From: Candidatus Parcubacteria bacterium
Lineage (GTDB): Bacteria > Patescibacteriota > Minisyncoccia > UBA6257 > HR35
Direction: 5' to 3'
NCBI GenBank assembly: GCA_025999335.1
Contig: AP024681.1
Coordinates: forward strand, 395,547-459,546
DNA: 64,000 bases
Of this stretch, positions 10,906-52,462 are shown piece by piece. The position numbers were made by a program, and so were the translations under genes. The notes beneath the pieces are model-generated. The model searched no databases, was not told the origin of the DNA, and saw nothing but the letters and a program-made list of their open reading frames with translations. Numbering within the stretch: position 1 is the first letter of the stretch; every line of letters starts with the position of its first letter.

Positions 10906-12831
10906 ATGGAATACGGTAAAAAAGTTTTTGTCGGCATTATACTTTCATCTTTGTTTATATTTTTGGTCGTTCCTTCATTTGCCGTTAAAGCACAGACTTC
11001 AGTTTCTTGCGACCCTGATGCTTTAAAACCTGCTAGCAAAGGTCAACGCGGTGCTAATGTTAAAAATTTGCAAGCTTGCTTAATTGAAGCTGGTTATGAC
11101 ATTCCCGCAGGTCCTACAGGATACTACGGTCCACAAACAGTAAGTGCAGTTTTGGAGTTCTACAAAGACAATGATATGCAAGACGGTATTAACCTTAAGG
11201 GTAATAGAATTGGTCCTAAGGGCATTGCTGCTTTAAAGGACGCTTTATCACAGGTTAGCGAAGAACCTAGCGAAGAACCTGGTGAAGAGCCTTCTACAAC
11301 AACTCCATCAACTGGAAGTCAACAACAACAACCATCAGTTGATCAAATTGTAGCTGCTGTAATTGCTGCTTTAAGAGCTCAAGGCTTATTACAACAACAG
11401 CCTACATCTACTGGTGTTACAGGGACAACTGGCGAAGAAGGTATTTTAACAGTGGACACCAATCCAACGCCAGCGTCTGGTCAGCAATTTAGAGAAGGAG
11501 AAACTCTTACTTGGTTAGGTGTAAGATTTAGAGCTCAAGATTCTGACATTAGAGTTAAAAGCTTTAAAGTTACTTGGCCATCTACAAACAATGTTGCTCC
11601 TCAAAGAGTTGTTGTAAAATTTGAAATCGTTGATGAACAAGGCAATGTTCTTAAAACAATTCCAGCTTCAGACTTTACTCAGGAAATATCCGGAAATCTT
11701 GACAGCTACTATTATGTAACTGGTTTAGATTATGTTGTGCCTAAAAATACTTACAAAGCTTTATACATAAAAGCATATGCTGTTTCTACATTCCCAAGTG
11801 GCTTACCAACTTCCTTTAATCTTCAGGTAAGCGAAGTAAGAGGTAGAGATAATGCTGGAATCGATAGATTCCCAGCAGGAACAGCTTCCAGAACTGTTAC
11901 ACCTCAATCAACCGTTGCTACTTCGGCACGATTTGATGTTTCTAAATCAGTTTCTTCTCCAGTAGAAAACAATGTTGTTGGTGATTATGTAACTGGAAGA
12001 GCAAACAATGTAAGACTTTTAGATGTTGAACTTTTAGCTAGAAATGATAGAGTTAGATTAATGCAATTAGTAGTTAATATTTCTGGTAGCGCTACTGCTT
12101 CTGTTGTATACCTTAAAGATGACGCTGGTAATACTATTGATTCAGCAGCGCCATCAGGAGGTACTGCAACCTTTACCAATGTTTTGGGTCAAAATATTTG
12201 GGTTGAAAGAGATCAAACTAAAAAACTTTCAATTTATGCTGACTTTACTGGCGTAACTACATCAGAAGTAACATCAACAGTTTCTGTTGCTTCTTTACAA
12301 AGACAAAACAGCTTAGGTGATACTGGTTCTCAGTCAGTTTCTGGAGTTAGCGGAGATCTAATGCATATCTTCACCGAAGCTCCAGTCTTTGCTAAAGGTT
12401 CAACTTTCGATGTAAGTATTACTAGAGATCAAAATAATTCAACCACAACCGCAAATGCTACTTTATATGTTAATGTTACAGCCAGAGGTTCAAATATTAA
12501 AATAAGTTCAACATCAGTCTTCACTCTTGCTTGGGAAAGAAATAATACTACAACAGTTGTAACTACTTCTGTTGCCGCAACTGAAGTTAAAGATCAAAGC
12601 GGTAATACTGTTGCTCAAGATACTAATGGTTATTACAATATTCCAGTTAATCAAACCTATACTTTTGTTCTCCAGAATCAACAAATCTTTACTGGAGCTC
12701 CAAGAGTTAGGGTAAAGGTTAATGGTATAACCTGGAGAAACTCTGCTAACAGTGATATTACTTCAGGTTCCTCAAGCTCAGCAACTGAGACTTGGGTTGG
12801 AAGAGATCTTAAGACTAATTGGAGCAACTAA
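10906..12831 (+). CDS. secreted protein with an N-terminal peptidoglycan-binding (PG_binding_1-like) domain and a long Ser/Thr-rich beta-rich region
   Basis: Signal peptide VFVGIILSSLFIFLVVPSFAVKA. Then ...GQRGANVKNLQACLIEAGYDIPAGPTGYYGPQTVSAVLEFYKDN... fits the PG_binding_1 consensus. Remainder is low-complexity T/S/V-rich. Confidence 0.5.
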   Translation: MEYGKKVFVGIILSSLFIFLVVPSFAVKAQTSVSCDPDALKPASKGQRGANVKNLQACLIEAGYDIPAGPTGYYGPQTVSAVLEFYKDNDMQDGINLKGNRIGPKGIAALKDALSQVSEEPSEEPGEEPSTTTPSTGSQQQQPSVDQIVAAVIAALRAQGLLQQQPTSTGVTGTTGEEGILTVDTNPTPASGQQFREGETLTWLGVRFRAQDSDIRVKSFKVTWPSTNNVAPQRVVVKFEIVDEQGNVLKTIPASDFTQEISGNLDSYYYVTGLDYVVPKNTYKALYIKAYAVSTFPSGLPTSFNLQVSEVRGRDNAGIDRFPAGTASRTVTPQSTVATSARFDVSKSVSSPVENNVVGDYVTGRANNVRLLDVELLARNDRVRLMQLVVNISGSATASVVYLKDDAGNTIDSAAPSGGTATFTNVLGQNIWVERDQTKKLSIYADFTGVTTSEVTSTVSVASLQRQNSLGDTGSQSVSGVSGDLMHIFTEAPVFAKGSTFDVSITRDQNNSTTTANATLYVNVTARGSNIKISSTSVFTLAWERNNTTTVVTTSVAATEVKDQSGNTVAQDTNGYYNIPVNQTYTFVLQNQQIFTGAPRVRVKVNGITWRNSANSDITSGSSSSATETWVGRDLKTNWSN

Positions 12832-23601: not shown

Positions 23602-24825
23602 ATGAGTGATTATCATCAACAAGGATTTTCTTTAATAGAAATTTTACTTGTTATTATTATAATTTCCGTTTTATCAGGTATATTTTTTTTCTTCTTTAAT
23701 TATTCTGAAATTAATCGCATTAATAGAGATGTTCAGCGTTTAAACGATTTGTCAGTTTTAAGGTTTGTTATTGACAATCTAAACTTAGATGCTCTCGATG
23801 ATTTAGAAAATAATATTTATTTATCTTTACCGGACACAACTTCTTCTTGCGCGAATTATAATTTAAACACTATTTATTCGCCTTTTGCCTATAAATGTCA
23901 GCCGGCTGCTAATTTAAGGAATACGGATTCTTCAGGATGGTTGCCAATTAATATGCAGTCGCAATCTATTGTTGGCATAAATTCTTTGCCTCTTGATCCT
24001 TTGAATAATGAACAATACTTTTATGCTTTTCAGGTTAAAGATAAAAAATATAAATTATCAGCAAGATTAGAATCAAGTTCTAAGGGAGCCGAGATGGTTT
24101 ATGATGGTGGCAGTAATTTAACTTTATATGAAGTTGGTAGTGGTCTTAATTTTGCGTCAGTTCACGACGGTTTAGTTGGTGCTTGGCATTTTGACGAACA
24201 AAGCACATCTACTCTTTTAGATTCTTCTTTATATAATAATAGTGGTTTTAGTAAAAGCGGAAGTGTTAATTTTGATTTGCATACGACTTCAACATGTAAA
24301 ATTGGTTATTGTTTACGCTTCGATGGTGTTGATGACTATGCTTTAATTTCTAATTCTTCAGTGTTTAATTTTAGCAATAAAGGCTTTACACTTTTAGCTT
24401 GGATTAAGATTGAAAATTTAAATGCTTCCAGCGAACATTTTATTATTAGTCGTTATAATTGGAGTAATGGGTCTGGTTATGGTATGCAGGTCACTAATAC
24501 AGGTAAAATTAGATGTGATTTTAATGGTTCTTCTGGTTATTTTTTGTCAAACGAATCTTATGTACAGCCTAATAATTGGTATTTAATTGGTTGTGTTTAC
24601 GATGGACAATCTTTAAAAATATTTGTTAACGGTAAAGAGAAGGAAGCATCTTCTCGTTCTAATTTGATTAATGCTATTAATTCTAATATTTATATTGGCA
24701 CGCCTGCAGATGCCGTAGGTTCTGATAATTTTTCTTTTCAAGGAATGATTGACGAGGTTTATATTTATAACCGTCCCTTAAATGAACAAGAAATTAATTT
24801 AATTTATCAATTTAGACCTAATTAG
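23602..24825 (+). CDS. type IV pilin-like (pseudopilin) protein with a C-terminal LamG/concanavalin-like domain
   Basis: Prepilin motif QQGFSLIEILLVIIIISVLSG (G^FxLxE cleavage/methylation site). C-terminal ...GMIDEVYIYNRPLNEQEI... is typical of LamG-domain ends. Confidence 0.6.
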   Translation: MSDYHQQGFSLIEILLVIIIISVLSGIFFFFFNYSEINRINRDVQRLNDLSVLRFVIDNLNLDALDDLENNIYLSLPDTTSSCANYNLNTIYSPFAYKCQPAANLRNTDSSGWLPINMQSQSIVGINSLPLDPLNNEQYFYAFQVKDKKYKLSARLESSSKGAEMVYDGGSNLTLYEVGSGLNFASVHDGLVGAWHFDEQSTSTLLDSSLYNNSGFSKSGSVNFDLHTTSTCKIGYCLRFDGVDDYALISNSSVFNFSNKGFTLLAWIKIENLNASSEHFIISRYNWSNGSGYGMQVTNTGKIRCDFNGSSGYFLSNESYVQPNNWYLIGCVYDGQSLKIFVNGKEKEASSRSNLINAINSNIYIGTPADAVGSDNFSFQGMIDEVYIYNRPLNEQEINLIYQFRPN

Positions 24826-33380: not shown

Positions 33381-33803
33381 ATGAAATTTAATTTTTTTAA
33401 AAAAATTTGGGGTAAGAAAGATAAAGATCAGGAAAAGCAGGCAACAACCAAAGATGTCGCTCAAGAATCTAAAAGCTCCGCTACGGAAATTACTGCGGAA
33501 GCTAAAGAGCCATTATTAGAATATAATGCTGGCGATTTAAAAATAATTCCTTTAATTACCGAAAAAACATCTAATTTAGCAGCTCGTTATAATCAATATA
33601 CTTTTATTGTCGATACCAATGTCAATAGACAAGAAGCTAAAAAAGCAATAGAAAAAATTTTTAAAGTTCAAGTTACTAAGGTAAGCATTGTTAATTATAA
33701 AGAAAGAATTCGTGGGGCAACAAGAATAAAAAGTCGGAGGAAAAGTTTTAAAAAAGTTATTGCCACTCTTAAACCCGGTCAAAAGATACCTCTTTTTGAA
33801 TAA
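33381..33803 (+). CDS. rplW: 50S ribosomal protein L23 with a Lys-rich N-terminal extension of about 45 aa
   Basis: ...LKIIPLITEKTSNLAARYNQYTFIVDTNVNRQEAKKAIEKIFKVQVTKVSIVNYKER... Confidence 0.85.
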   Translation: MKFNFFKKIWGKKDKDQEKQATTKDVAQESKSSATEITAEAKEPLLEYNAGDLKIIPLITEKTSNLAARYNQYTFIVDTNVNRQEAKKAIEKIFKVQVTKVSIVNYKERIRGATRIKSRRKSFKKVIATLKPGQKIPLFE

Positions 33804-33850
33804 ACTTTACAACTAATTAATATTCTCTTATTTTTCCACAAATCATTTCA

Positions 33851-33879
33851 TTGACTTTTGTTATTTTGTAGATTATAAT
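33851..33879 (+). promoter_or_regulatory. sigma70-like promoter at the start of the cassette inserted in the S10 operon
   Basis: TTGACT at 33851-33856, 17-nt spacer, TATAAT at 33874-33879. Lies 7 nt upstream of the ORF starting at 33886. Confidence 0.4.
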
Positions 33880-33885
33880 TTAAAT

Positions 33886-34347
33886 ATGCTTGGAAAAAGG
33901 CATTTATTGTATGTTTTTATAGTTTTAGCAATGATTGTTGTTGTTGGCGGAGTGTTTTATTTTTTAGAATTAGAACGAAAAAAAGCAAGAGAAGCTCCGC
34001 CAATGCCCACAACGACATCGCCAACAATTTCTGTGCCGACAACAACTATAGAACAATATAAGTTAAAGACTGAGCAAATAGAGACGCTTCAATCTTTAAG
34101 AGAAGAACATTTAAAGCAAAAAGAAGAAACACTGAAAGGTTTAACGCCGCAGCAACGAGCAAAAGTTGAAATTCAAGAAAAGCAAGAGCAACATAACGCT
34201 TTACAAAAAAAGAGAGAAGAATTTCTTAAGAAAGAAGCTGCGCGTAATAAAGGTAAAACAACTAAACAAATTGCTCAAGAATCATTTCAAGAAAAACAAC
34301 GACAATATAATGAATTACAAAATTTACGAAATTTACTTGGTCAATGA
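33886..34347 (+). CDS. membrane-anchored coiled-coil protein (hypothetical)
   Basis: 153 aa. Transmembrane helix LLYVFIVLAMIVVVGGVFYF, Pro/Thr linker, then charged heptad-like K/E/Q-rich region. Confidence 0.4.
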   Translation: MLGKRHLLYVFIVLAMIVVVGGVFYFLELERKKAREAPPMPTTTSPTISVPTTTIEQYKLKTEQIETLQSLREEHLKQKEETLKGLTPQQRAKVEIQEKQEQHNALQKKREEFLKKEAARNKGKTTKQIAQESFQEKQRQYNELQNLRNLLGQ

Positions 34348-34390
34348 TTTTTTAGGTCATCATAATTAAATTTTATATATGGTTTCATAA

Positions 34391-37300
34391 ATGAGAAGTT
34401 TCTTTGAAAAAAAGTTAGCACTTTTGAGGTCGGCAGCTTTACTCTCTATTTTTGTTTTTTCTATAATCGGTATTAGTTACGCGTGGCAAAATCCTACAGT
34501 GTCTCCTCCTGGTGGTAACGTCGATGCTCCGGTAAATACCGGCACAAGCACTCAATATAAAGCAGGTGCGTTAGGTATTGGCGGTGTGTTTAATGCTTAT
34601 AACGATGCTTATTTTGGAATAACAACTGGAAGTGACACCACTACAGCTCCTAACGTTTCTATTACAGGTAATACGGTTGGGAGTGGTTATGAGTATAATC
34701 GTGATAAGAATTTTGTGCATTTGCAAACCGGTTCGATGCAAATAGATTCTCAATGTAGTTGCGATATTAGTACAACTGTTGCAGATTGTCCAGATTCTGT
34801 TTTTTATTCACCAGCAAATTTAGGCGATATATGTTTTGATTATTATAAAACGACAACGATATCAGGAGGAGCTTCTGTCATACAATATGGAAGATTTAAA
34901 TACGATCGTTCTGCTAATAAGGGATTATTAGGAGGCGCTCTTCAAGTGTACAATAAAGTGCTAATAGGGTCTTCTAAAAATCCTTCTTCCCATGTTCCTG
35001 GTATAGAATTTATAAAAACTTTTCAAAATACACCAGGAGAATCCAATCGATCTTTAGGATATTTTATATCGCTAATAAAAGAAGGTTTAGGTTTTTTCAC
35101 AAATAATAACACAACAACACCATCGGTTTTCTTCTCTCAAGATGGAACTCTAAGCATCAACACAACGACAGATAAGTCTATGTTAACTATCTGGGGTAAT
35201 GATAGAAATAATCTTTTAAGCATATTCGCTACTCCTTCTTATCCGTTTGTGTTTGTTGAAAACAGAAACGGTGATGGAGTTATGACTATTGGTAATACTA
35301 AATACATAAATTATATTCCTCTGTCATCTGGCTTGAATGTTATCGGCGATAATATTATTTTATCTAACTATAAATATCCTTCCGGCGGTGTCGGAGTAAT
35401 TTCAAAAAACGTTTTTGCTCATGCGACAAGAGATTATTTTTCAGATGTATCTCAGTACAATAATATAAAGAATCGTACGGGAGTAGGTTTTAGATGCGAT
35501 AGCAATGATGATATTAACATAGATCAGAAAAACTATTATAATGGCAGAGATGCCGATCCTAATTATAGCGTTGGTTCTGTATGTTATGATTTGTTTACTG
35601 AACAAGTATCTGGAGCTACTCTTTATGGTTTTAACGAATTTAAAGTTATAACCACTCAGGTTCCTTCCGGTCCTGTAGTTTGGCAGTACGAAGGTTTACC
35701 AAGTATTAATTTTATTGATTGGCGAAAATCATTATCTTCATTTTCATTATTTAACATAGGGGGTATTTTTAGAATTCAAGGTGGAACATCTACTATTTTA
35801 AGTATAGATGCAGAAAATAAAAATGTTGGCATAAATACTATTAGCATACCTACTACTGCTGCTTTATATGTTGTTGGCAATATTAAAGCAACTGGCGATG
35901 TTTGTGATGGAAATAGGTGTTTGAAAGATATTACTGGTGGTGGCGGTCCATCGTATTGGCATCTTAATGGCACTAATTTATATCCTACTGACATCAATTA
36001 TAAAGTTGGCATCGGCACAACCTCTCCTAATGCAATGTTAAGTATTAAAGGTACATCAACGAATAATTTATTCAGTATTTATACCTCTTCTTCTAACCCA
36101 GCTTTGTTTGTTGATAGTAGTGGTAAAATTGGCATAGGGACAACTACTCCTAATTATGTTGTTGATATTATTGGATTGAATTCCGTAGGCAGTTTAAGAT
36201 TAAGACATACATCTACCAATAGACATCTTTTATTAGGAGGCGATTGGCCATATATTGAAAGTGAGAATGCTGGAATTTTTATTAATTGGCACAATAATCA
36301 GCCAATATATATAAGACGAAACACTTTGTTTGTCGAGACAAATAAAGTTGGCATCGGCACAACTTCTCCTACTTCAATGTTAACTATTAGGGGTACATCA
36401 ACGAATAATTTATTCAGTATTTATACCTCTTCTTCTAACCCAGCTTTGTTTGTTGATAGTAGTGGTAAATCATTTTTTAAGATATTGCCATCTATATTTA
36501 ATGGCGATGATGCTAGTGTCGTTATTAGCAATAAAGCAACAATTTTTATTACCAATACTTCTAGCAATGGTTTAATCTTACAAAATACTTCTACTAGTTT
36601 TTATTTATTAACTCGTTCAGGAATGTGGACAAATGCAAATAGCAGTGACCCAGATACTTGCAGCGGGAATGATAGAGAGAATATTTTTAAAGAATGTTCA
36701 CAAGTTATTAATAGTTGTGTTGATGTAGCTAAGTTTGTAAATATAGATGAAAGTGGGGCTACTACTGAAGAATATTTAAAAAGTACTGTCACTTGTAGGC
36801 TAGTTAACGATCCTAATTCTAGATATCAATTTTCTGTTAACAAAGATAGTTTAGTTATTTCTTATGCTTCGTCTTCAAATAATAATTTATTATATATATT
36901 TAATAATGGTTCGGTTAGTTTAGGTGATAAAATTTATACCGATAGCATTCATTCACTTTATTATCGTGGTTCCTCAACTAGATCGTTTGAAGCAGATACT
37001 TTAATTGCGCGTAAAAGTATATTTGCTCTTAATGGTTATGTAGTAGCAAAAAAACTTTGTTTCGGTTTGGGAAATTGTCTAAGTGATTGGCCTAGTGGTG
37101 GGTCAGCATCTTATTGGAACGGAAGGAATGATCCGGATTATATTTATCCTATCGCCACTAGTTATAAAGTTGGCATTGGAACAACTTCGCCTGATGCGAT
37201 GTTAACTATCCGAGGCAATACCTCGTCTTCTCATTTACTCAGAGTTTATTCTGTTACAAGCACTATTCCTGCTTTGTTTATAAACAATAATAGTAACGTC

Positions 37301-38236
37301 GGCATTGGAACAACAAGTCCATCAGCAAAACTGCATGTCGTAGGAGGTGATGCTGTATTTAGTCATAGAATAGGCATCAGCACAACTTCTCCTAATGCAA
37401 TGTTAACTATTAGAGGTACATCAACGAATAATTTATTTAGTGTTTATGCTTCTAATTCAGATCAAGTTTTGACTATTAATTATCGAGGTGACATAAATAT
37501 TGGCGGTGGTAAATTTTTTATCAACTACCTTGGTAATGTAGGCATAGGGACAATTATTCCCGGGGTAGCATTAGATGTTTTGGGAGACATAAAATCTAGT
37601 GCAACAATAACAGCAGCAGTAGTATCATCGTCAAAAATATGCTTAGCTGGAACTTGTCGAACTACTTGGCCAAGTGGTAGTGTAGGTAATATTAGCGGGA
37701 GTGGAAACAGTGGTTATATTGCTAAATTCAATGATACAAACTCGATTACAAATTCTGTGATTTATGAACAATCTTCTAATATCGGCATTGGAACAACAAA
37801 TCCATTAGCAAAATTGCATGTTGACGGAGGTGGAGGTAAGGTTGTATTTACTAATAGTAACGTCGGCATTGGAACAACAAATCCATTAGTAAAGTTAGAG
37901 GTTAGCGGTGATGCTAAGTTTATTGGCAATGTTAGCGTTTCTGGTTATGTTGAAGCTGATATGATAAAACAAAAATTTTGTTTAAATTCTTCATGTACTT
38001 CCTTTCGACAATCAACTGCTATAAGAGGTATATATGATGTTAGTGGATCAGGTGGTAGTGGTACGGTTTTATACTGTCGTCCTAATGATAAAGTTATATC
38101 TGCTTTTATGGCTGGCTATGGAGGAAATGATAATTTTGGATGGGAGATAGTAATAAATGATTTGCAAGAAGGAGTTAAATTTTATCCGGAGGTGAATGCT
38201 ACGAATTTAAGAGTTAGATGCTTAAAACTTCAATAA
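34391..38236 (+). CDS. giant (1281 aa) secreted/surface repeat protein with tail-fibre-like (V)GIGTT(S/N)P..(M/K)L.(I/V).G repeats
   Basis: N-terminal signal/anchor LLSIFVFSIIGISYA. At least 8 copies of the GIGTTSP/GIGTTNP motif. Near-identical intragenic DNA repeats. Gly/Ser/Thr/Asn-rich and Cys-poor except at the C-terminal end. Confidence 0.5.
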   Translation: MRSFFEKKLALLRSAALLSIFVFSIIGISYAWQNPTVSPPGGNVDAPVNTGTSTQYKAGALGIGGVFNAYNDAYFGITTGSDTTTAPNVSITGNTVGSGYEYNRDKNFVHLQTGSMQIDSQCSCDISTTVADCPDSVFYSPANLGDICFDYYKTTTISGGASVIQYGRFKYDRSANKGLLGGALQVYNKVLIGSSKNPSSHVPGIEFIKTFQNTPGESNRSLGYFISLIKEGLGFFTNNNTTTPSVFFSQDGTLSINTTTDKSMLTIWGNDRNNLLSIFATPSYPFVFVENRNGDGVMTIGNTKYINYIPLSSGLNVIGDNIILSNYKYPSGGVGVISKNVFAHATRDYFSDVSQYNNIKNRTGVGFRCDSNDDINIDQKNYYNGRDADPNYSVGSVCYDLFTEQVSGATLYGFNEFKVITTQVPSGPVVWQYEGLPSINFIDWRKSLSSFSLFNIGGIFRIQGGTSTILSIDAENKNVGINTISIPTTAALYVVGNIKATGDVCDGNRCLKDITGGGGPSYWHLNGTNLYPTDINYKVGIGTTSPNAMLSIKGTSTNNLFSIYTSSSNPALFVDSSGKIGIGTTTPNYVVDIIGLNSVGSLRLRHTSTNRHLLLGGDWPYIESENAGIFINWHNNQPIYIRRNTLFVETNKVGIGTTSPTSMLTIRGTSTNNLFSIYTSSSNPALFVDSSGKSFFKILPSIFNGDDASVVISNKATIFITNTSSNGLILQNTSTSFYLLTRSGMWTNANSSDPDTCSGNDRENIFKECSQVINSCVDVAKFVNIDESGATTEEYLKSTVTCRLVNDPNSRYQFSVNKDSLVISYASSSNNNLLYIFNNGSVSLGDKIYTDSIHSLYYRGSSTRSFEADTLIARKSIFALNGYVVAKKLCFGLGNCLSDWPSGGSASYWNGRNDPDYIYPIATSYKVGIGTTSPDAMLTIRGNTSSSHLLRVYSVTSTIPALFINNNSNVGIGTTSPSAKLHVVGGDAVFSHRIGISTTSPNAMLTIRGTSTNNLFSVYASNSDQVLTINYRGDINIGGGKFFINYLGNVGIGTIIPGVALDVLGDIKSSATITAAVVSSSKICLAGTCRTTWPSGSVGNISGSGNSGYIAKFNDTNSITNSVIYEQSSNIGIGTTNPLAKLHVDGGGGKVVFTNSNVGIGTTNPLVKLEVSGDAKFIGNVSVSGYVEADMIKQKFCLNSSCTSFRQSTAIRGIYDVSGSGGSGTVLYCRPNDKVISAFMAGYGGNDNFGWEIVINDLQEGVKFYPEVNATNLRVRCLKLQ
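36005..36127 (+). repeat. intragenic direct repeat copy 1 (123 bp) within the giant repeat-protein gene
   Basis: Near-identical to 36347-36469. A 78-bp core (36050-36127) is 100% identical to 36392-36469. Confidence 0.85.
36347..36469 (+). repeat. intragenic direct repeat copy 2 (123 bp), 342 bp (114 codons, in frame) downstream of copy 1
   Basis: gttggcatcggcacaac[t/c]tctcct...ggtacatcaacgaataatttattcagtatttatacctcttcttctaacccagctttgtttgttgatagtagtggtaaa. A third, more diverged copy lies near 37368-37470. Confidence 0.85.
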
Positions 38237-38299
38237 TAGGATATTATAAGATTATTCAGTGAAATTCAGTTAAATTTAGTATATTATAAATTTTTTAAA

Positions 38300-40624
38300 A
38301 TGAACTTACAAAATAAATTATATTTAGTTAAAGCGGGTTTGGTGCTAGCGATTTTAGTTTTTTTAATATTTTTGTTTAATTATTTTGTTAAAGCTCAAGA
38401 ATCATCAGGATCTCCATCTTTTAATGTTTCTGGTTGGGCGTGGACTAATATGGCTTCAGGTTCATCTCCTATTTATGATCATGATCCAACTATTGGTTGG
38501 GTGGTTTTTAGTTGTAATACAAAGATTAAAAAGAATAACGACACAGAAGAACCAATTAAAATCTGTAGCGACGGTCTTGATAAAGGTAAGATATGCAACA
38601 TTGGCGTAGCTACCGGAATCCCACGAGTTGATTGTAGAAATTATGATGGTAGCATTAATAATGGCTTTTGTCAAGATGCTTGCAGAGTTTCTCGTTTTGG
38701 AGTTGATATTAATACTTCAACTGGATGTATAACTGGTGATGCTTGGAGCTCTAATATTGGTTGGATTAGTTTTAACAAAAATTCTTCTACTTTTATAAAT
38801 GGGATTTCAAGATTCCCCAATGGTTACAATCCAGCAAGCAGCACTTGTCCCAATTCTTTAGCTGTTTTAGAATCAACAAGCACGCTTTTTGTTACTACCA
38901 CAAAAATATTAGGTTGGGCAAGAGCTGTTGCGCCTGCTATTTTTCAGGATAGAGAGGGCAGATTTTATGATCCTCATCCTAACTCAGGAGGATGGGATGG
39001 TTGGATTAGCTTTAATAAATTCACCGGCACTGTTGATTATGGTGTATACATTGATAAAAATGGTGATTTTCACGGTTGGGCATGGAGTGATGATAAAATT
39101 GGTTGGTTGTCGTTTAATAGCGAAGATACTAGATCAACTATTCCTTATAAGGTTTCTTTAAGTAGTTCAACAATTTCAAGAAATTTAGCGCTTACTTTAA
39201 CTCCTAATCCTAATCCAGTGACTGTTGGTCAAACAACTACTTTTAGTTACAGCACTTCAGGAACTGTAAATTGTAATATTACTGAATTTTGGTCAGGCGT
39301 GCCTTGTGGTTTAAGTATTACTACATCTTCTTGTAACTATGTGCCAACAGCAACTGGTAATTATGCTTATTACATCGCAGCAACAGCAACTTGCGCTGGA
39401 ATTACATTTTTTGCTACTAGTGGTACGACTTTAGTTGTTACTGATGCTCCAATTGCGACTTTAAATATTAATAGCTATCCTTCTGGTGTTTCCTTTAATA
39501 GTTCCTTTGGTAGTTTCACTACTCCTCGTACCGTAACCTCAACAGCAACTATTACTGCTACTTTAATAGCGTCATCATCGGTTAACAAAAATGGAACTAA
39601 TTATGATTTTGTTGAGTGGGTTAACTGCAATTCTGTAAGTGGTTCTAATGGTGAAACTTGTAATGTAAGCGTAAATCCAGGAGAGACTATAAGTATTACA
39701 GCTAATTATAGGGCGCGTGGTGTAGCTACATTAAATATTATTAGCTCGCCTATTAGCGTTTCTATTAATGATGCTTTAATAAACGGATCTAGCGCAAACT
39801 TTACTACTCCTCATACCGTAACATCAACAGCAACTATTACTGCTACTTTAACAGCACCACTATCGGTCATAAGTGGAACTAATTATGATTTTGTTAAGTG
39901 GGTTGACTGCGATTCTGTAAGTGGTTCTAATGGTGAAACTTGTAATGTAACCGTTGCTCCAGGTGCAATAACTACTGTCAGTGCTAATTACAACACATCT
40001 TCACCTCCATCTCCACCTACAACAGGTAGTACTACTTTAAAAATTGTTACTCCTGCATGTAATGGCGAGATAGCAACTACATCTCATTTAAGTAGATATG
40101 CAGCTAGGAGTGACCCTCAAGGCGGAGAATATTTATCAGCTTTCAACACGACCTCACTTATAACTGAATATAATGCGTTTTTGAGTAGTAGAGATGCAAA
40201 CAGAACTCAATGTCCTTATATTGTTATAAATGATAAAAGTTCTTCGTTTAAATTATTTATAGATGTTGAAAATGTTAATACTTCTACTACTTATACTATT
40301 AAAATTAAAAATAACACATCTGGAAAGGAGGGTTCATTATTAGATGAGACGAGATTTAGTCAAAGCAATGAATTAAAATATATAAGCATAACTGATATTA
40401 GCGCTGATGGAATAATGAGCGAATTCGCAGGTCTTAATACTGTTTCATTAGAAGAATTTAGGTCAAGAAATGTGGTGGCTACGTCATCTTTAAATATATA
40501 TGGATTGCGCGTAGGTGGCGATTCATGTTATTTAAGGAATCAACCTGAGAAAATTTCAAGCAGTATCTATAGGTCTTTGTGTAATTTCTGGATTAATGAG
40601 ACAGGAATGATTAGACAGCAATGA
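38300..40624 (+). CDS. secreted Cys-containing repeat protein with three GW(I/L)SFN motifs and a tandemly duplicated ~90-aa Thr-rich domain
   Basis: Signal/anchor GLVLAILVFLIFLFNYFV. Motifs GWISFNKNSS, GWISFNKFTG, GWLSFNSEDT. Duplicated ...FTTP(R/H)TVTSTATITATL...GTNYDFV(E/K)WV(N/D)C(N/D)SVSGSNGETCNV(S/T)V.PG...(T/S)ANY... at about 39.45-40.0 kb. Confidence 0.45.
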   Translation: MNLQNKLYLVKAGLVLAILVFLIFLFNYFVKAQESSGSPSFNVSGWAWTNMASGSSPIYDHDPTIGWVVFSCNTKIKKNNDTEEPIKICSDGLDKGKICNIGVATGIPRVDCRNYDGSINNGFCQDACRVSRFGVDINTSTGCITGDAWSSNIGWISFNKNSSTFINGISRFPNGYNPASSTCPNSLAVLESTSTLFVTTTKILGWARAVAPAIFQDREGRFYDPHPNSGGWDGWISFNKFTGTVDYGVYIDKNGDFHGWAWSDDKIGWLSFNSEDTRSTIPYKVSLSSSTISRNLALTLTPNPNPVTVGQTTTFSYSTSGTVNCNITEFWSGVPCGLSITTSSCNYVPTATGNYAYYIAATATCAGITFFATSGTTLVVTDAPIATLNINSYPSGVSFNSSFGSFTTPRTVTSTATITATLIASSSVNKNGTNYDFVEWVNCNSVSGSNGETCNVSVNPGETISITANYRARGVATLNIISSPISVSINDALINGSSANFTTPHTVTSTATITATLTAPLSVISGTNYDFVKWVDCDSVSGSNGETCNVTVAPGAITTVSANYNTSSPPSPPTTGSTTLKIVTPACNGEIATTSHLSRYAARSDPQGGEYLSAFNTTSLITEYNAFLSSRDANRTQCPYIVINDKSSSFKLFIDVENVNTSTTYTIKIKNNTSGKEGSLLDETRFSQSNELKYISITDISADGIMSEFAGLNTVSLEEFRSRNVVATSSLNIYGLRVGGDSCYLRNQPEKISSSIYRSLCNFWINETGMIRQQ

Positions 40625-40712
40625 TTTGTTTTGTTTGAAGTATATGGTATAATAATAAATAATTATACAAGGGGTTGATTTATTTTTTTGCAAAAATTTT
40701 TAGATTTTTATT

Positions 40713-41549
40713 ATGTCAATAAAAACAATAAAATCTCGTAGTTCAGGAAAGATTATAAGAGTTTTGGTTGATAAGTCAGCGATAATAACGGCGCAAAAAC
40801 CGTACAAGCCTTTAACTGTTGCTTTAAAAAAACGAACTGCTCGCAATTCTCAGGGAAGAATTACTGTTCGTTTTAGAAGTAATCCTTATCATAGACGTTT
40901 ATATCGTATTATAGATTTTTCCCGTTTAGATAAAAAAGGTATTGTAGGCACGGTAGAAACTATTGAATATGATCCTAATCGAAGCGCTTTTATTATGTTA
41001 GTAAGTTACTTGGATGGTGATAAAAGATATCATTTAGCGCCAGAAAACATCAAAGTAGGAGATAAAATTGTTTGCGACGAGAATACTTCTTTGCAGATTG
41101 GCAATCGAATGGCTTTAAAAAATATTAATTCAGGAACAGAGATTTTTGAATTAGAGTTAGTTCCGGGTTCAGGTGGTAAGTTGATTAGATCAGCGGGTTC
41201 TTTTGGGGTGATGATGGGAATTGAAAAAAATTATGCTTTAATTAAAATGCCATCAGGTGAAATTCGTAAGATTCACAAAGAATGTTATGCAACTTTAGGA
41301 CGCGTGTCTAATTCAGGTCATCGTTTAGAGCAATGGGGTAAAGCAGGTCGTAGTCGTTGGCAGGGTAGAAGACCTAAGGTAAGAGGTTCAGCAATGAATC
41401 CGAGGGATCATCCTTATGGCGGTGGTGAAGGTAAGGCAACTCGTGGTACGCGCAAACCTAAAGATAAATGGGGTAATATTACTGGCGGTAGAAAAACAAG
41501 AAACGTTAAAAAACCTTATTCAAAGCTTATAATTAAACGTAGAAAGTAA
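40713..41549 (+). CDS. rplB: 50S ribosomal protein L2
   Basis: 278 aa. ...GRNSQGRITVRFRSNPYHRRLYRIIDF... and ...HPYGGGEGKATRGTRKP... Confidence 0.95.
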   Translation: MSIKTIKSRSSGKIIRVLVDKSAIITAQKPYKPLTVALKKRTARNSQGRITVRFRSNPYHRRLYRIIDFSRLDKKGIVGTVETIEYDPNRSAFIMLVSYLDGDKRYHLAPENIKVGDKIVCDENTSLQIGNRMALKNINSGTEIFELELVPGSGGKLIRSAGSFGVMMGIEKNYALIKMPSGEIRKIHKECYATLGRVSNSGHRLEQWGKAGRSRWQGRRPKVRGSAMNPRDHPYGGGEGKATRGTRKPKDKWGNITGGRKTRNVKKPYSKLIIKRRK

Positions 41550-49520: not shown

Positions 49521-49607
49521 GGAGGGGTGCGAGAACGGCTAATCGGGCGGTCTTGAAAACCGCTGGCTTTTACAGCCTTGTGGGTTCGAATCCCACCCCC
49601 TCCGCCA
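49521..49607 (+). tRNA. tRNA-Ser (anticodon TGA), class II with long variable arm and encoded CCA
   Basis: Acceptor GGAGGGG/CCCCTCC, 3-bp D stem, anticodon stem GCGGT/ACCGC with loop CTTGAAA, variable arm TGGCTTTTACAGCC, T arm GTGGG-TTCGAAT-CCCAC, discriminator G + CCA. TATAAT at 49509-49514 just upstream. Confidence 0.85.
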
Positions 49608-50561
49608 GTTTACAATTTCAGCGTTTTTGAATATTTTTTGTTTTGTTGTTTTTGTTGGTTGTTAATGATTTAGGTGTCTTGGTAAAAGTAATAAATTATA
49701 ATGAAATCAAGTAATAAATTAACAATTGTTGAAAATATAAAGAAATATCGGTTAAAAGTTAGGAGTTTCTCAAAACAAGCTTTCAAAATTAACTGACATT
49801 ACTTATGACGCGATTATCAAGATTGAATTAGAATAAATAAAAATCTTAAAACCAAAAGTTAAATTTTTAATTTAATCAATATTATTGTTAAATTATTCAA
49901 TTTGACTTGAATAGATAATTATGACTGAAGATTTTTTGAAAAATTTAATCAAAGAATATAAACACTTGACTATTTATGTTTATCCCAATCATGGTTATCT
50001 TGGAGGTTGCGTTATGCGGTGCAAACGCGAAGATGCTTTTGATTTGATAAATACAACGCCGGAGGAATAAATAGGGCTACTTTTTGTTTTGTGATATTTG
50101 AAAGAGGCAATAAAAAAAGCTTTTTAACAAGATTGGCTTAATTATTAGTTTTTGATAAATGAAACAAGAGACGTTTGCGCTGTCATTTTGTTACTCGCTA
50201 CGTAAAACTAAAAACATTTATTAATATTGTATTTGAAGATAAACTCTATGGACATAATCATAAAAAAGGTAATAGTTTCGTAACATCAGAAGAATTACTA
50301 AAGGCGATTCGAGAAGAATTAAAAAAGGCATTAAAATAATTTTAAAAACGGCTCATTCGTGAAGCGGGTATGGCGAGTAGGGAAAAATTTACCAATTGTT
50401 TGCTTGCGAGTTGATTACGATATTAGAGTAAATTCGTTGTTTGATAAGTTTTAAAGCGTGTTTGAGTTAAAACAACTTGGAAAAATTATGTTATTTGATC
50501 ATAATTATATAATAATGAGTATAATAATGAGTATATTAAACAAAAAATTATTATAAAACAT

Positions 50562-51257
50562 ATGAGCTCTGAAAATCCGATTAAATCTAAGGAAGTGTTC
50601 TCGAAAATAAGAATTGAAATTGATCCAGATTTTAATGGTTTTGTTCCAGACGAGTTTATGCAAAATCCTATAGAATATTTTGAAAAGATGGGACGGAATA
50701 TAAAATCAGGAGAAATTAAACGAGATAAATTTGGTAGAATACGCGAAGATCCAACTGCTGTTAAAGAATTTCCAGTTTGGCGAGATGCAAAAGGAGACGA
50801 ATTACAAACAATTGCTAAGAGAGTAAATATAAAAAAAGGGAAAATTGGAGAATCTGGTAATCCATTTTATGAATATGAAATTATGAAAATTGTAAGAAGC
50901 ATTAGCTTGCCTGCTCCGCGTCCTGTTGCGAAAGTTGAACAGCAGGGAGTATATTTGATTGTAATGGAGAAAGTGCCTGGGATTAATTGGCACGAAAACA
51001 ACGAACTTGAACTAAAAGAAAAAGGTTTCAGCGATGAAGATATCGAAAATCTTAAAAGGCAGGCGGAAATAATGATGGTTGAATTACAACAAAGATTTGA
51101 AGAAGCTGGAATTATTCGTGGTTGGAAATTAAAAGATATGATTTTTGATATTGATTTTGAAAATAAAAAAATTAGAAAAATTATACCTACTGATTGGGAA
51201 AGAACAAAAATTAACATAAAGAAACTAGAAGAGTATAGAAAGAGAATTCAGGGATAG
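50562..51257 (+). CDS. hypothetical protein with possible protein-kinase-like/phosphotransferase fold
   Basis: 231 aa. Hinge-like ...VYLIVMEKVPG... and ...IIPTDWERT... (compare the APH/Kdo-kinase IDWE motif). The catalytic-loop HGD is not conserved (RGWKLKD). Confidence 0.3.
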   Translation: MSSENPIKSKEVFSKIRIEIDPDFNGFVPDEFMQNPIEYFEKMGRNIKSGEIKRDKFGRIREDPTAVKEFPVWRDAKGDELQTIAKRVNIKKGKIGESGNPFYEYEIMKIVRSISLPAPRPVAKVEQQGVYLIVMEKVPGINWHENNELELKEKGFSDEDIENLKRQAEIMMVELQQRFEEAGIIRGWKLKDMIFDIDFENKKIRKIIPTDWERTKINIKKLEEYRKRIQG

Positions 51258-51481
51258 AAATGTATTTATAAGTTAAATAGGGTTAAATAATTCTTAAATT
51301 TTTATTAGAAAACTTAAGAATTGTTTTTTTATATTCAAAACTTTATTTTATTTTTTGAATTTATATTGCTCCTTAGATAAAGAATTAGTTGTTTGTTGGT
51401 TAAGATTAAAAAGAAAATTTAACCTTTTATTCTTATTTTGTAAATTTGGGTTTTTGAATTTTGGTTAATATTTTAATATCA

Positions 51482-52462
51482 TTAGCTCCAATGTGATTTG
51501 ATATACGATGTAATTTCGCTAACTTTTAAGGGTACAGTTGTATTATTGATTCTAACAAAAAATAATTCTTCGTTATCAAATTTTACATATACCGGTTTAT
51601 CACTTGGAAAAACTTTAATAATAGCTATTTCCTTATCTTCAATTTTTTGAAAAAAAATTTTGACATATTTATGATATTGAATGCCGATATAATGTTTAAA
51701 GATGTTGAGAAAATGATTTTGAAAACTGTCGCTGTTTTTTTTAGGTAATGTTTGATAGTCGGCATCTAGACCAGTTACTCTTTGTTCATCGTCAACGCCA
51801 ATAATTAAAAATCCTCCTTGGCTATTTAAAAAACCAGCGATAGTTTTGATAATTGCTTTTTCTAAATTTTTATTTACCTTGCCTTCTTTAAAATCCCATC
51901 GCATAGATTGTTTAAATTCAATATTTTCACTTTCTTTGCGTTGTAAAATGCTTGCTAAACTTTCGCCTTGGTAAAGTTCATTGATGTATTTTCTTTTAAT
52001 GTTGTTAATAATTATTTTTTTTATTTGTTTTGGATTATAAATATTGTCTAAGATTAAAGTTTGATTATCTTGGGAATTGTAAATAATAATATTGCCAACA
52101 TTAAAAAATTTGTCAAGGGGAGTATGAGATAATTTGACTTCTATTTTTTCATTAAGATATATTATTTGTCTTTTTTTGGCAATAAAATTTTTTTCATAAA
52201 TAATAACATCGGGATAAATAGTTATAGTTTCCAAATGCCATTTTATAAAAGCAGCGACGATTAAGATTATTTCCGCTAAGACTATAAATAATAATTTAGC
52301 TAATTCGTATGAGATTATTTGAGTTAAATTAAGAGCTTTATATATTTCTCCATAATTTGCTAAAATTGCAGCTATAAAATATAAAAAACTGCCTAAAAAT
52401 TGAATAATAATTAGGTTTTTGATAATTACAATAGGATGTTTTTTTATAACTATATTTTTCAT
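51482..52462 (-). CDS. membrane protein with an N-terminal bacterial PH (bPH_2/YdbS-like) domain and a C-terminal AlbA_2 (Schlafen-like putative DNA-binding) domain
   Basis: Two transmembrane helices plus ...DVIIYEKNFIAKKRQIIYLNEKIEV... bPH-like core. C-terminal ...ESENIEFKQSMRWDF...AGFLNSQGGFLIIGVDDEQRVTGL... matches the AlbA_2 motif. Confidence 0.5.
   Translation of the reverse strand: MKNIVIKKHPIVIIKNLIIIQFLGSFLYFIAAILANYGEIYKALNLTQIISYELAKLLFIVLAEIILIVAAFIKWHLETITIYPDVIIYEKNFIAKKRQIIYLNEKIEVKLSHTPLDKFFNVGNIIIYNSQDNQTLILDNIYNPKQIKKIIINNIKRKYINELYQGESLASILQRKESENIEFKQSMRWDFKEGKVNKNLEKAIIKTIAGFLNSQGGFLIIGVDDEQRVTGLDADYQTLPKKNSDSFQNHFLNIFKHYIGIQYHKYVKIFFQKIEDKEIAIIKVFPSDKPVYVKFDNEELFFVRINNTTVPLKVSEITSYIKSHWS

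Follow-up and report, generated by a model that had tools for sequence, protein, structure and literature searches.

In the window, i.e., the whole stretch of 64,000 nucleotides analysed here, the genes rplW (ribosomal protein L23) and rplB (L2) are 6.9 kb apart and the gap is filled by three open reading frames (ORFs) of the same strand, which encode proteins of 153, 1281 and 774 aa (hereafter, the cassette). The source genome is that of Candidatus Parcubacteria bacterium KatS3mg097, the 680-kb contig of which encodes a protein, KatS3mg097_428, with exactly the sequence of the 774-aa product; exact-sequence look-ups for L23 and for the 1281-aa product of the window gave no record. The cassette is probably a chromosomally fixed, native, genus-level cell-surface module of a Paceibacteria-type Patescibacterium, localized at an operon boundary and carrying mosaic alleles, and not a mobile element. 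From the present analysis, its 1281-aa product (the fibre) and its 774-aa product (the GW protein) are best seen as proteins that behave like specificity determinants under diversifying, recombination-driven evolution.

The separation of L23 and L2 by three ORFs, reported in an earlier reading of the sequence alone (the initial annotation), is found in the ORF map as well as with Pfam (Table 1). The genes tuf, rpsJ, rplC and rplD are localized upstream of rplW in the window. Downstream, S19 through SecY and then adk follow; the canonical order on the same strand from rplB to adk, as initially described, is seen both in the ORF map and in the Pfam-annotated copy L001, which is ~100% identical there. 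The four spacers of the cassette are 43-88 nt each and every gene is on the same strand. Each of the three inserted proteins has a single N-terminal hydrophobic segment. No Pfam family exceeds its curated cut-off for any of them; the weak matches to Foie-gras_1 and VP2_lagovir are under the gathering scores and were ignored.

The same three genes are present in L001 (GCA_041640215.1, a 20.5-kb NCBI contig), the ribosomal proteins of which are 99-100% identical to those of the window. L106, a 35-kb Logan contig from SRR27730017, has the same arrangement with flanks 99.3% identical over 10 kb. A sister species is represented by L002-5 (contigs of SRR27730020-24), with an L2 that is 95% identical at the amino acid level and ~81% at the DNA level. 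In these contigs the 3' end of the fibre gene and the gene for a 677-aa homologue of the GW protein are directly upstream of rplB, i.e., fixation of the cassette in the sister species concerns at least the fibre and GW-protein genes.

The next relatives (L2 identity of 65-78%) are all devoid of the cassette, which is thus missing only where L2 identity is 78% or less. Their junction between rplW and rplB is found in various states: a 3-nt gap (L086, L091, L094, L097), a 55-171-nt spacer (L007-10, L087, L088, L092, L093, L096) or 1 kb of inserted DNA with the gene of a 247-aa secreted protein (L089). In six other loci the junction is split and the neighbours are unrelated: a divergent NUDIX-pilin-like gene (L006), aspS and the gene of a 576-aa secreted protein (L011), gap and a zinc-ribbon gene (L012), mreBCD (L013), a pilin gene with pilB and pilC after L23 (L099), and a small membrane protein gene with thiI after L23 (L095). 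The 88-aa membrane protein that follows L23 in L095 was considered as a homologue of the 153-aa protein and rejected, the two being not homologous. The canonical S10-spc cluster is different: outside the family, all of the 44 bacterial loci in which both genes were detected have rplW-rplB gaps of 8-169 nt, against 6.9 kb here, whereas in the family the junction has been rearranged repeatedly. On a quick neighbour-joining (NJ) tree of L2+S19+L22+S3 the junction states fall on different branches, which leads to an approximate count of at least five independent events.

The window and L001 are ~100% identical in DNA over two stretches, tuf to 34.5 kb and 40.0 kb to adk; within the cassette, the sliding identity is 30-90%, in blocks, and those of the two large genes differ by 30-60%. 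The blocks were defined by the three-way identity profile of the window, L001 and L106 and by Nei-Gojobori estimates (Table 1). Overall, the variable blocks have a proportion of synonymous differences (pS) of 0.4-0.8 and a ratio of nonsynonymous to synonymous divergence (dN/dS) mostly of 0.14-0.8, while pS is 0 in the flanks and in the internal constant blocks. This alternation of zero and near-saturated synonymous divergence, with dN/dS <1, leads to the conclusion that the blocks do not result from in situ mutation, hypermutation or a diversity-generating retroelement (DGR) but from homologous exchange of old functional alleles. The architecture of the fibre is chimeric, with a conserved proximal and an exchanged distal part: the tip block (variable block 3) is exchanged among strains, and the tip of the sister species is different again, the C-terminal fragment of L004 being alignable only via the shaft modules. 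At the switch points, near 35.9 and 37.2 kb, there are copies of the conserved shaft motif, which are plausible crossover sites.

The fibre is made of an N-terminal leader module, a globular region, repeated beta-helix fibre modules and a Cys-containing C-terminal tip. The shaft motif (K/N)(V/I)GIGTT(S/N)P...L.(I/V).G is present in about 9 copies (DNA repeat family D2, 9 copies). The protein matches PHROG tail-fibre families (E 2.8e-14 to 4e-7) and, in the PDB, the shaft of Bd2133, a mosaic adhesive trimer (MAT) fibre of Bdellovibrio (phmmer, E 6e-6), with a residue-level alignment through ...GNVGIGTxxPxxKLHV... modules. Pfam detects no Peptidase_S74 in the fibre, which is thus not an S74 member; its remote homologues carry a C-terminal Peptidase_S74. 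For the Cys-containing C-terminal ~120 aa, no fold or homologue was found. The fibre may assemble as a trimer.

In the leader module, i.e., residues 1 to ~90 of the fibre, a hydrophobic segment is followed by the conserved motif A-W-x-x-P-T-x-x-P-P-x-G-N-x-x-A-P-x-N...Q-Y-K-x-G-A-L-G-I-G-G. The module is found in 2,237 representative protein clusters (E<=1e-3), always at the N-terminus, in proteins of 78 to about 1,300 aa, and no Pfam family covers it. The C-terminal domains that follow it are diverse (S74, Shufflon_N, LVIVD). One leader ahead of such diverse distal domains suggests a common export or docking handle.

The GW protein is composed of a signal/anchor segment, a GW-repeat barrel domain, an Ig-like region, two ~95-aa repeats (D4/D7) and a C-terminal domain. 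At least 616 homologues of the GW domain were found, largely in named Patescibacteria; they are mostly ~300-440 aa long and have Ig_Rha78A_N or PKD domains. The AlphaFold2 model of the domain, obtained with a 98-sequence alignment, is confident, with a predicted local distance difference test score (pLDDT) of 84.3 and a predicted template modelling score (pTM) of 0.82, and a beta-barrel-like fold is predicted. Modelled at full length, the 774-aa protein gave a poor result (pLDDT 41), and the fold search was made with the GW-domain model instead. Short GW paralogues (loci L107-L114) are localized between clpP and rny, beside minor-pilin-like genes and rpmF-nusB-rnc, or before rpsL-rpsG-fusA. 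Such housekeeping neighbourhoods indicate that surface genes among translation genes are common in these compact genomes. GW paralogues also adjoin the genes of minor-pilin-like (N_methyl) proteins, of a prepilin peptidase or of PilB-like ATPases, a neighbourhood suggestive of a link with type IV pili.

In the 153-aa protein, the N-terminal transmembrane anchor is followed by a Pro/Thr linker and then by a charged, E/K/Q-rich region, probably helical or coiled-coil; the protein is 99% identical between strains. Neither this protein nor the GW protein gave anything above cut-offs in Pfam, NCBIfam and PHROG scans, and no homologue of known function was found for the former. The surface or adhesion module peculiar to the lineage, one of the two possibilities raised initially, is well in line with the three N-terminal signal/anchor segments, the tail-fibre/MAT-like fibre, the fixed position in the species and the absence from the next relatives.

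The TTGACT-17-TATAAT site that the initial annotation had described as the own promoter of the cassette does exist, with a match at 11/12 positions. However, this AT-rich region has no excess of promoter-like matches (64 found vs 65.3 expected from shuffled sequence), thus the site alone is weak evidence for a promoter. If it is functional, the mRNA would be leaderless, since the -10 hexamer ends 6 nt before the first ATG of the cassette. As for rplB, an extended -10 promoter-like motif, TGNTANAAT, is present upstream of it in 17/23 family loci, 41-110 nt before the ATG, for an expected value of 0.05 per 120 nt. The motif also precedes rplB in family members with contiguous rplW and rplB, and it is absent from the four members with a 3-nt gap. 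In the window the extended -10 motif is over-represented (43 found vs 27.9 expected) and occurs in the correct orientation in several other intergenic regions, e.g., before tuf and rpmC. The usual presence in the family of an extended -10 motif belonging to rplB makes the rplW/rplB junction probably an operon boundary. A single S10 operon has rplW and rplB adjacent or overlapping and no internal promoter; here there are a 6.9-kb gap and a family-conserved extended -10 motif. Judging from these motifs, the cassette is probably situated where one transcription unit ends and another begins, the break point being specific to the lineage.

No terminator-like hairpin was found in the four cassette spacers, the folding of which shows no structure beyond that of shuffled sequences, and Rfam gave no leader or other RNA over 30.3-41.0 kb. 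Read-through from upstream is thus possible. The initial description of a cassette inserted inside the S10 operon and hitch-hiking on its transcription must then be qualified: an operon boundary is probable at rplB, and read-through may still occur.

Such hitch-hiking, if functional, would mean that read-through from the tuf/rpsJ promoter couples the output of surface proteins to growth rate. It is compatible with a native surface module and in keeping with same-strand genes, short spacers and the absence of terminator-like hairpins and Rfam elements, but it must be held doubtful: a strong -35/-10 match stands directly before the first cassette gene, the extended -10 motif before rplB is conserved in the family, several relatives express rplB without any rplW upstream, and 6.9 kb of intervening mRNA would disturb the stoichiometric synthesis of ribosomal proteins. 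A different origin, i.e., the recent acquisition of a mobile or phage-derived cassette that became integrated between rplW and rplB, was the other possibility initially raised. The integrase and transposase already reported as absent are indeed found by none of Pfam, NCBIfam and PHROGs among the three cassette proteins, and neither are other phage genes. No repeat pair, direct or inverted, spans the cassette edges; in particular, the direct repeats that were to be looked for at 33.80 and 40.70 kb are absent. The repeat pair D8 (33443 and 34257), short and in two copies, is a chance match. A tblastn search of 50,697 phage records with the fibre gave no match, and no viral structure matches the GW domain. 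The hallmarks of an island are also lacking. Base composition and codon usage are not deviant: the GC content at third codon positions of the three genes (0.188, 0.205 and 0.199) is that of the window (0.198 +/- 0.025), the codon-position composition is native, and the slightly higher total GC of the cassette is due to second codon positions, raised by a Ser/Thr/Gly-rich amino acid composition. Presence does not vary among close relatives either, as the same site is occupied in three strains and in a sister species with ribosomal-protein DNA already 19% diverged. The initial annotation had retained, as the observation that would tell against a mobile cassette, the finding of the same genes at the same place in relatives: this is the case at the species and genus levels, whereas the more distant members of the family have no cassette. 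A mobile origin, not supported by these results, is thus very unlikely, although the PHROG tail-fibre matches of the fibre, the absence from the next relatives and the clear horizontal exchange of variable blocks would agree with it.

The variable blocks themselves could be ascribed to programmed antigenic variation, i.e., to gene conversion from silent donor cassettes (pilE/pilS-like) or to a DGR. The change is indeed block-wise with sharp borders beside repeated conserved motifs, and Patescibacteria are rich in DGRs (PMC11661182). This explanation is nevertheless quite improbable. The 64-kb window contains no paralogues of the cassette genes nor paralogous segments; among 5.8 billion proteins there is no other close homologue from the KatS3mg097 genome, only the three orthologous alleles; Pfam finds no reverse transcriptase domain in the cassette; and the variation spans kilobases with heavy synonymous divergence (the pS and dN/dS given above), unlike the adenine-targeted nonsynonymous pattern of DGRs. 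As regards an artefact (mis-assembly, chimeric metagenome-assembled genome or non-coding ORFs), the data do come from metagenome-assembled genomes, and L106 ends, and the contigs of the sister species start, inside the GW gene, a typical strain-heterogeneity break. The same arrangement is however found in separately assembled contigs, i.e., the 680-kb contig, that of GCA_041640215.1 and those of Logan SRR27730017 and SRR27730020-24, thus it is no assembly artefact. Alleles with up to 60% difference keep the ORFs intact and have dN/dS <1, and members of the homologous domain families number in the hundreds to thousands. The likelihood of an artefact is close to negligible.

The explanation favoured here, i.e., a native surface module at an operon boundary, can be described as follows. 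Most simply, an internal promoter may have decoupled rplB and the downstream genes from rpsJ-rplW in this lineage. At the junction thus freed, insertions and rearrangements would have been neutral, and several independent events would have opened, filled or split it; the cassette would occupy it as the boundary of two transcription units. Its products would be (i) a small N-terminally anchored coiled-coil protein; (ii) a fibre of ~1300 aa with beta-helix modules like those of phage tail fibres or Bdellovibrio MAT fibres, behind a widely used leader module; (iii) a secreted protein that combines a GW beta-barrel with Ig-like repeats. Near-identical genomes carry old, functional and highly diverged blocks in the fibre and in the N-terminal two-thirds of the GW protein, probably swapped by homologous recombination at conserved internal segments. 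Once exported and displayed on the surface, the proteins might mediate attachment to or recognition of host cells, or serve as phage targets, and the alternative alleles might be kept by frequency-dependent selection.

The position of the cassette could even be adaptive, the ribosomal-protein cluster serving as a «landing pad» for exchangeable attachment modules, though this is improbable. The ultra-conserved ribosomal flanks would give long near-identical homology arms for swapping in whole or partial alleles acquired from related strains or species, and expression during growth would be guaranteed. These bacteria commonly have competence genes and type IV pili. The idea is consistent with the genes of secreted proteins found between rplB and rpsS (L025, L072, L077) and with the GW genes beside other translation genes.

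Several points weigh against the native surface module favoured here. The match with Bd2133 concerns the repeated shaft modules and not the whole protein, and the S74 chaperone domain is absent from the fibre. Surface display and interaction with hosts or phages are deduced solely from signal segments and homology. The claim of two units relies on a sequence motif, and co-transcription with the ribosomal genes is possible. The sample is made of three strains and one sister species, and the NJ tree has no support values. L106 is a short-read metagenome contig in which the assembly may have fused two strains that occur together; recombination would then rest on the alternation of pS=0 and pS~0.6 between the window and L001, a mosaic that is independent of L106.

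What is unusual here is the site inside the ribosomal cluster, the fragility of the rplW/rplB junction throughout the family and the two uncurated Candidate Phyla Radiation (CPR) modules; the kinds of system involved are otherwise known. No relevant literature on S10-operon insertions in Patescibacteria was found. Hypervariable surface loci between core genes include pneumococcal cps (dexB/aliA), O-antigen (galF/gnd), flagellin or pilin loci and «metagenomic islands». As in the cps, O-antigen and pilin loci, near-clonal genomes have one deeply diverged locus (here, pS of ~0.6 vs 0 in the flanks), alleles are swapped by homologous recombination and the products are surface-exposed. On the contrary, the flanks are here ribosomal-protein genes, the crossovers are inside genes, and protein fibres replace polysaccharide pathways. 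Phage tail fibres and tailspikes (PHROG 9942, 18345, 3269; Peptidase_S74-terminated) share with the fibre the shaft repeat modules, a mosaic and recombination-driven evolution and the S74 of its remote homologues. They differ in that the cassette has no phage context, phage-genome match, baseplate or chaperone genes, and in that the N-terminus of its fibre is a cellular signal/leader module of >2,000 protein clusters.

The MAT fibres of Bdellovibrio bacteriovorus (e.g., Bd2133 and Bd1334; PDB 8ond, 8ojn; PMC10769870) are also long secreted proteins with repeated beta-helix modules and the motif ...G-N-V-G-I-G-T-x-x-P-x-x-K-L-H-V..., and likewise occur in a bacterium living on other cells. Proximal parts are conserved and distal parts exchanged in both cases: Bd2133 and Bd1334 are 75% identical at the N-terminus and have swapped C-termini (Caulton et al. 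2024, PMC10769870). Four differences must be mentioned: (i) the cassette fibre has no S74 chaperone domain or recognisable Bd2133-type tip; (ii) in Bdellovibrio, 21 paralogues vary within one genome, whereas the variation is here allelic, between strains, at one locus; (iii) it also affects the N-proximal and shaft blocks; (iv) the organism is here a monoderm-type Patescibacterium, in which the trimer and its display are presumed. Another CPR system, the Pam pilus, has an operon that adjoins the ATP synthase operon and includes a «tail fibre-like protein» (bioRxiv 10.64898/2026.03.03.709456). In both cases CPR surface-appendage genes are stably embedded beside a core housekeeping operon; the likeness described here is one of neighbourhood. 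The Pam pilus has different proteins, Ig-fold donor-strand-exchange pilins and chaperones, and is found in other classes, Saccharimonadia and Microgenomatia.

Recognition of and attachment to hosts by CPR bacteria are largely unknown beyond a few cultivated Saccharibacteria. The present locus gives two candidates, the MAT-like fibre and the GW-barrel protein, in an uncultivated Paceibacteria-type lineage; the exchange of blocks between otherwise identical strains is the expected signature of specificity determinants or phage receptors. Two widespread and unannotated CPR modules are also defined, i.e., the fibre leader (>2,000 clusters) and the GW domain (>600 matches), and both could become curated families. 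Finally, the rplW-rplB junction, supposedly inviolate, can in one family turn into an operon boundary and a hot spot of rearrangement. Its fragility matters for binning and phylogenomics based on ribosomal proteins and for models of the regulation of ribosomal-protein operons.

Table 1. Features of the rplW-rplB region of the window and blocks of strain variation within the cassette (aa, position given in the protein).
Feature	Position	Strand	Remarks
rplW (L23), 140 aa	33381-33803	+	Pfam Ribosomal_L23, E 1.5e-22; last gene of tuf-rpsJ-rplC-rplD-rplW
Promoter-like TTGACT-17-TATAAT	33851-33879	+	11/12 positions match; function putative
153-aa protein gene	33886-34347	+	ORF map
1281-aa fibre gene	34391-38236	+	ORF map
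Fibre N-terminal leader module	34391-34690	+	hydrophobic segment, then conserved motif
Fibre variable block 1	34560-35180	+	window differs from L001 = L106; 46-74% DNA identity; pS 0.59-0.70, dN/dS 0.28-0.45
Fibre constant block	35181-35880	+	99-100% DNA identity in all three pairs; pS 0
Fibre variable block 2 (shaft modules)	35881-37250	+	window differs from L001 = L106; 56-90% identity; pS 0.5-0.65, dN/dS 0.14-0.36
Fibre variable block 3 (distal shaft and tip)	37251-38236	+	window = L106, L001 differs; pS 0.4-0.8
774-aa GW-repeat protein gene	38300-40624	+	ORF map
GW domain, 252 aa	38414-39169	+	GWAWS...IGWISFN hairpins; family uncharacterised, widespread in Patescibacteria
GW protein, variable part	aa 1-540		window differs from L001; pS up to 0.44
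GW protein, constant part	aa 541-774		window and L001 identical; pS 0
Extended -10 promoter-like motif TGGTATAAT	40645-40653	+	60 nt upstream of rplB ATG
rplB (L2)	40713-41549	+	Pfam Ribosomal_L2_N and Ribosomal_L2_C, E 1.4e-47 and 1.4e-28; heads rplB-rpsS-rplV-...-secY-adk

Other observations concern the ribosomal cluster and its surroundings. L23 has an N-terminal extension (33381-33545) of ~40-55 aa, rich in Lys and Glu and beginning with MKFNFFKKIWGKK, which is family-specific and conserved in relatives (L089:53-457, L095:1040-1483, L099:10001-10369). Between the promoter-like motif of rplB and the rplB start, L092 (7513-7589) and L093 (5173-5248) have a long GC-rich palindrome, GTGGGTGATGAGCGGTGCTCATCACTCATCACCCA, which is absent from the window and could be a leader structure in these two loci. 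In other Patescibacteria, insertions of 1.9-4.8 kb are found between rplB and rpsS (L025:10828-13270, L072:7385-11673, L077:10807-15651, L049:10762-13266, L084:10750-12696), thus the S10 cluster is interrupted at a second junction in other CPR lineages. These insertions mostly encode signal-peptide proteins, i.e., a 692-aa coiled-coil protein, two of ~205 aa with a 620-803-aa secreted protein, and membrane proteins.

Nine kb upstream of the cassette, a gene (23602-24825) encodes a 407-aa type IV pilin-like protein with an N_methyl motif and a Laminin_G_3/sialidase-like lectin domain; in the relatives L099 and L006, pilin, pilB and pilC genes are found directly at the broken rplW or rplB junction. 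Downstream of adk there is a tRNA (49521-49604), and the synteny with L001 stops right after it. Past the tRNA are a 231-aa orphan ORF and a minus-strand Schlafen/AlbA_2 gene, then rpoB and rpoC; after adk the window does not continue with the alpha operon (rpsM to rplQ). This tRNA-associated spot (49521-52462) is a second strain-variable site. Finally, the most GC-rich kilobase of the window (GC 0.40, owing to a GC content of 0.46 at second codon positions) belongs to the gene (10906-12831) of a 641-aa protein with a peptidoglycan-binding domain, PG_binding_1.

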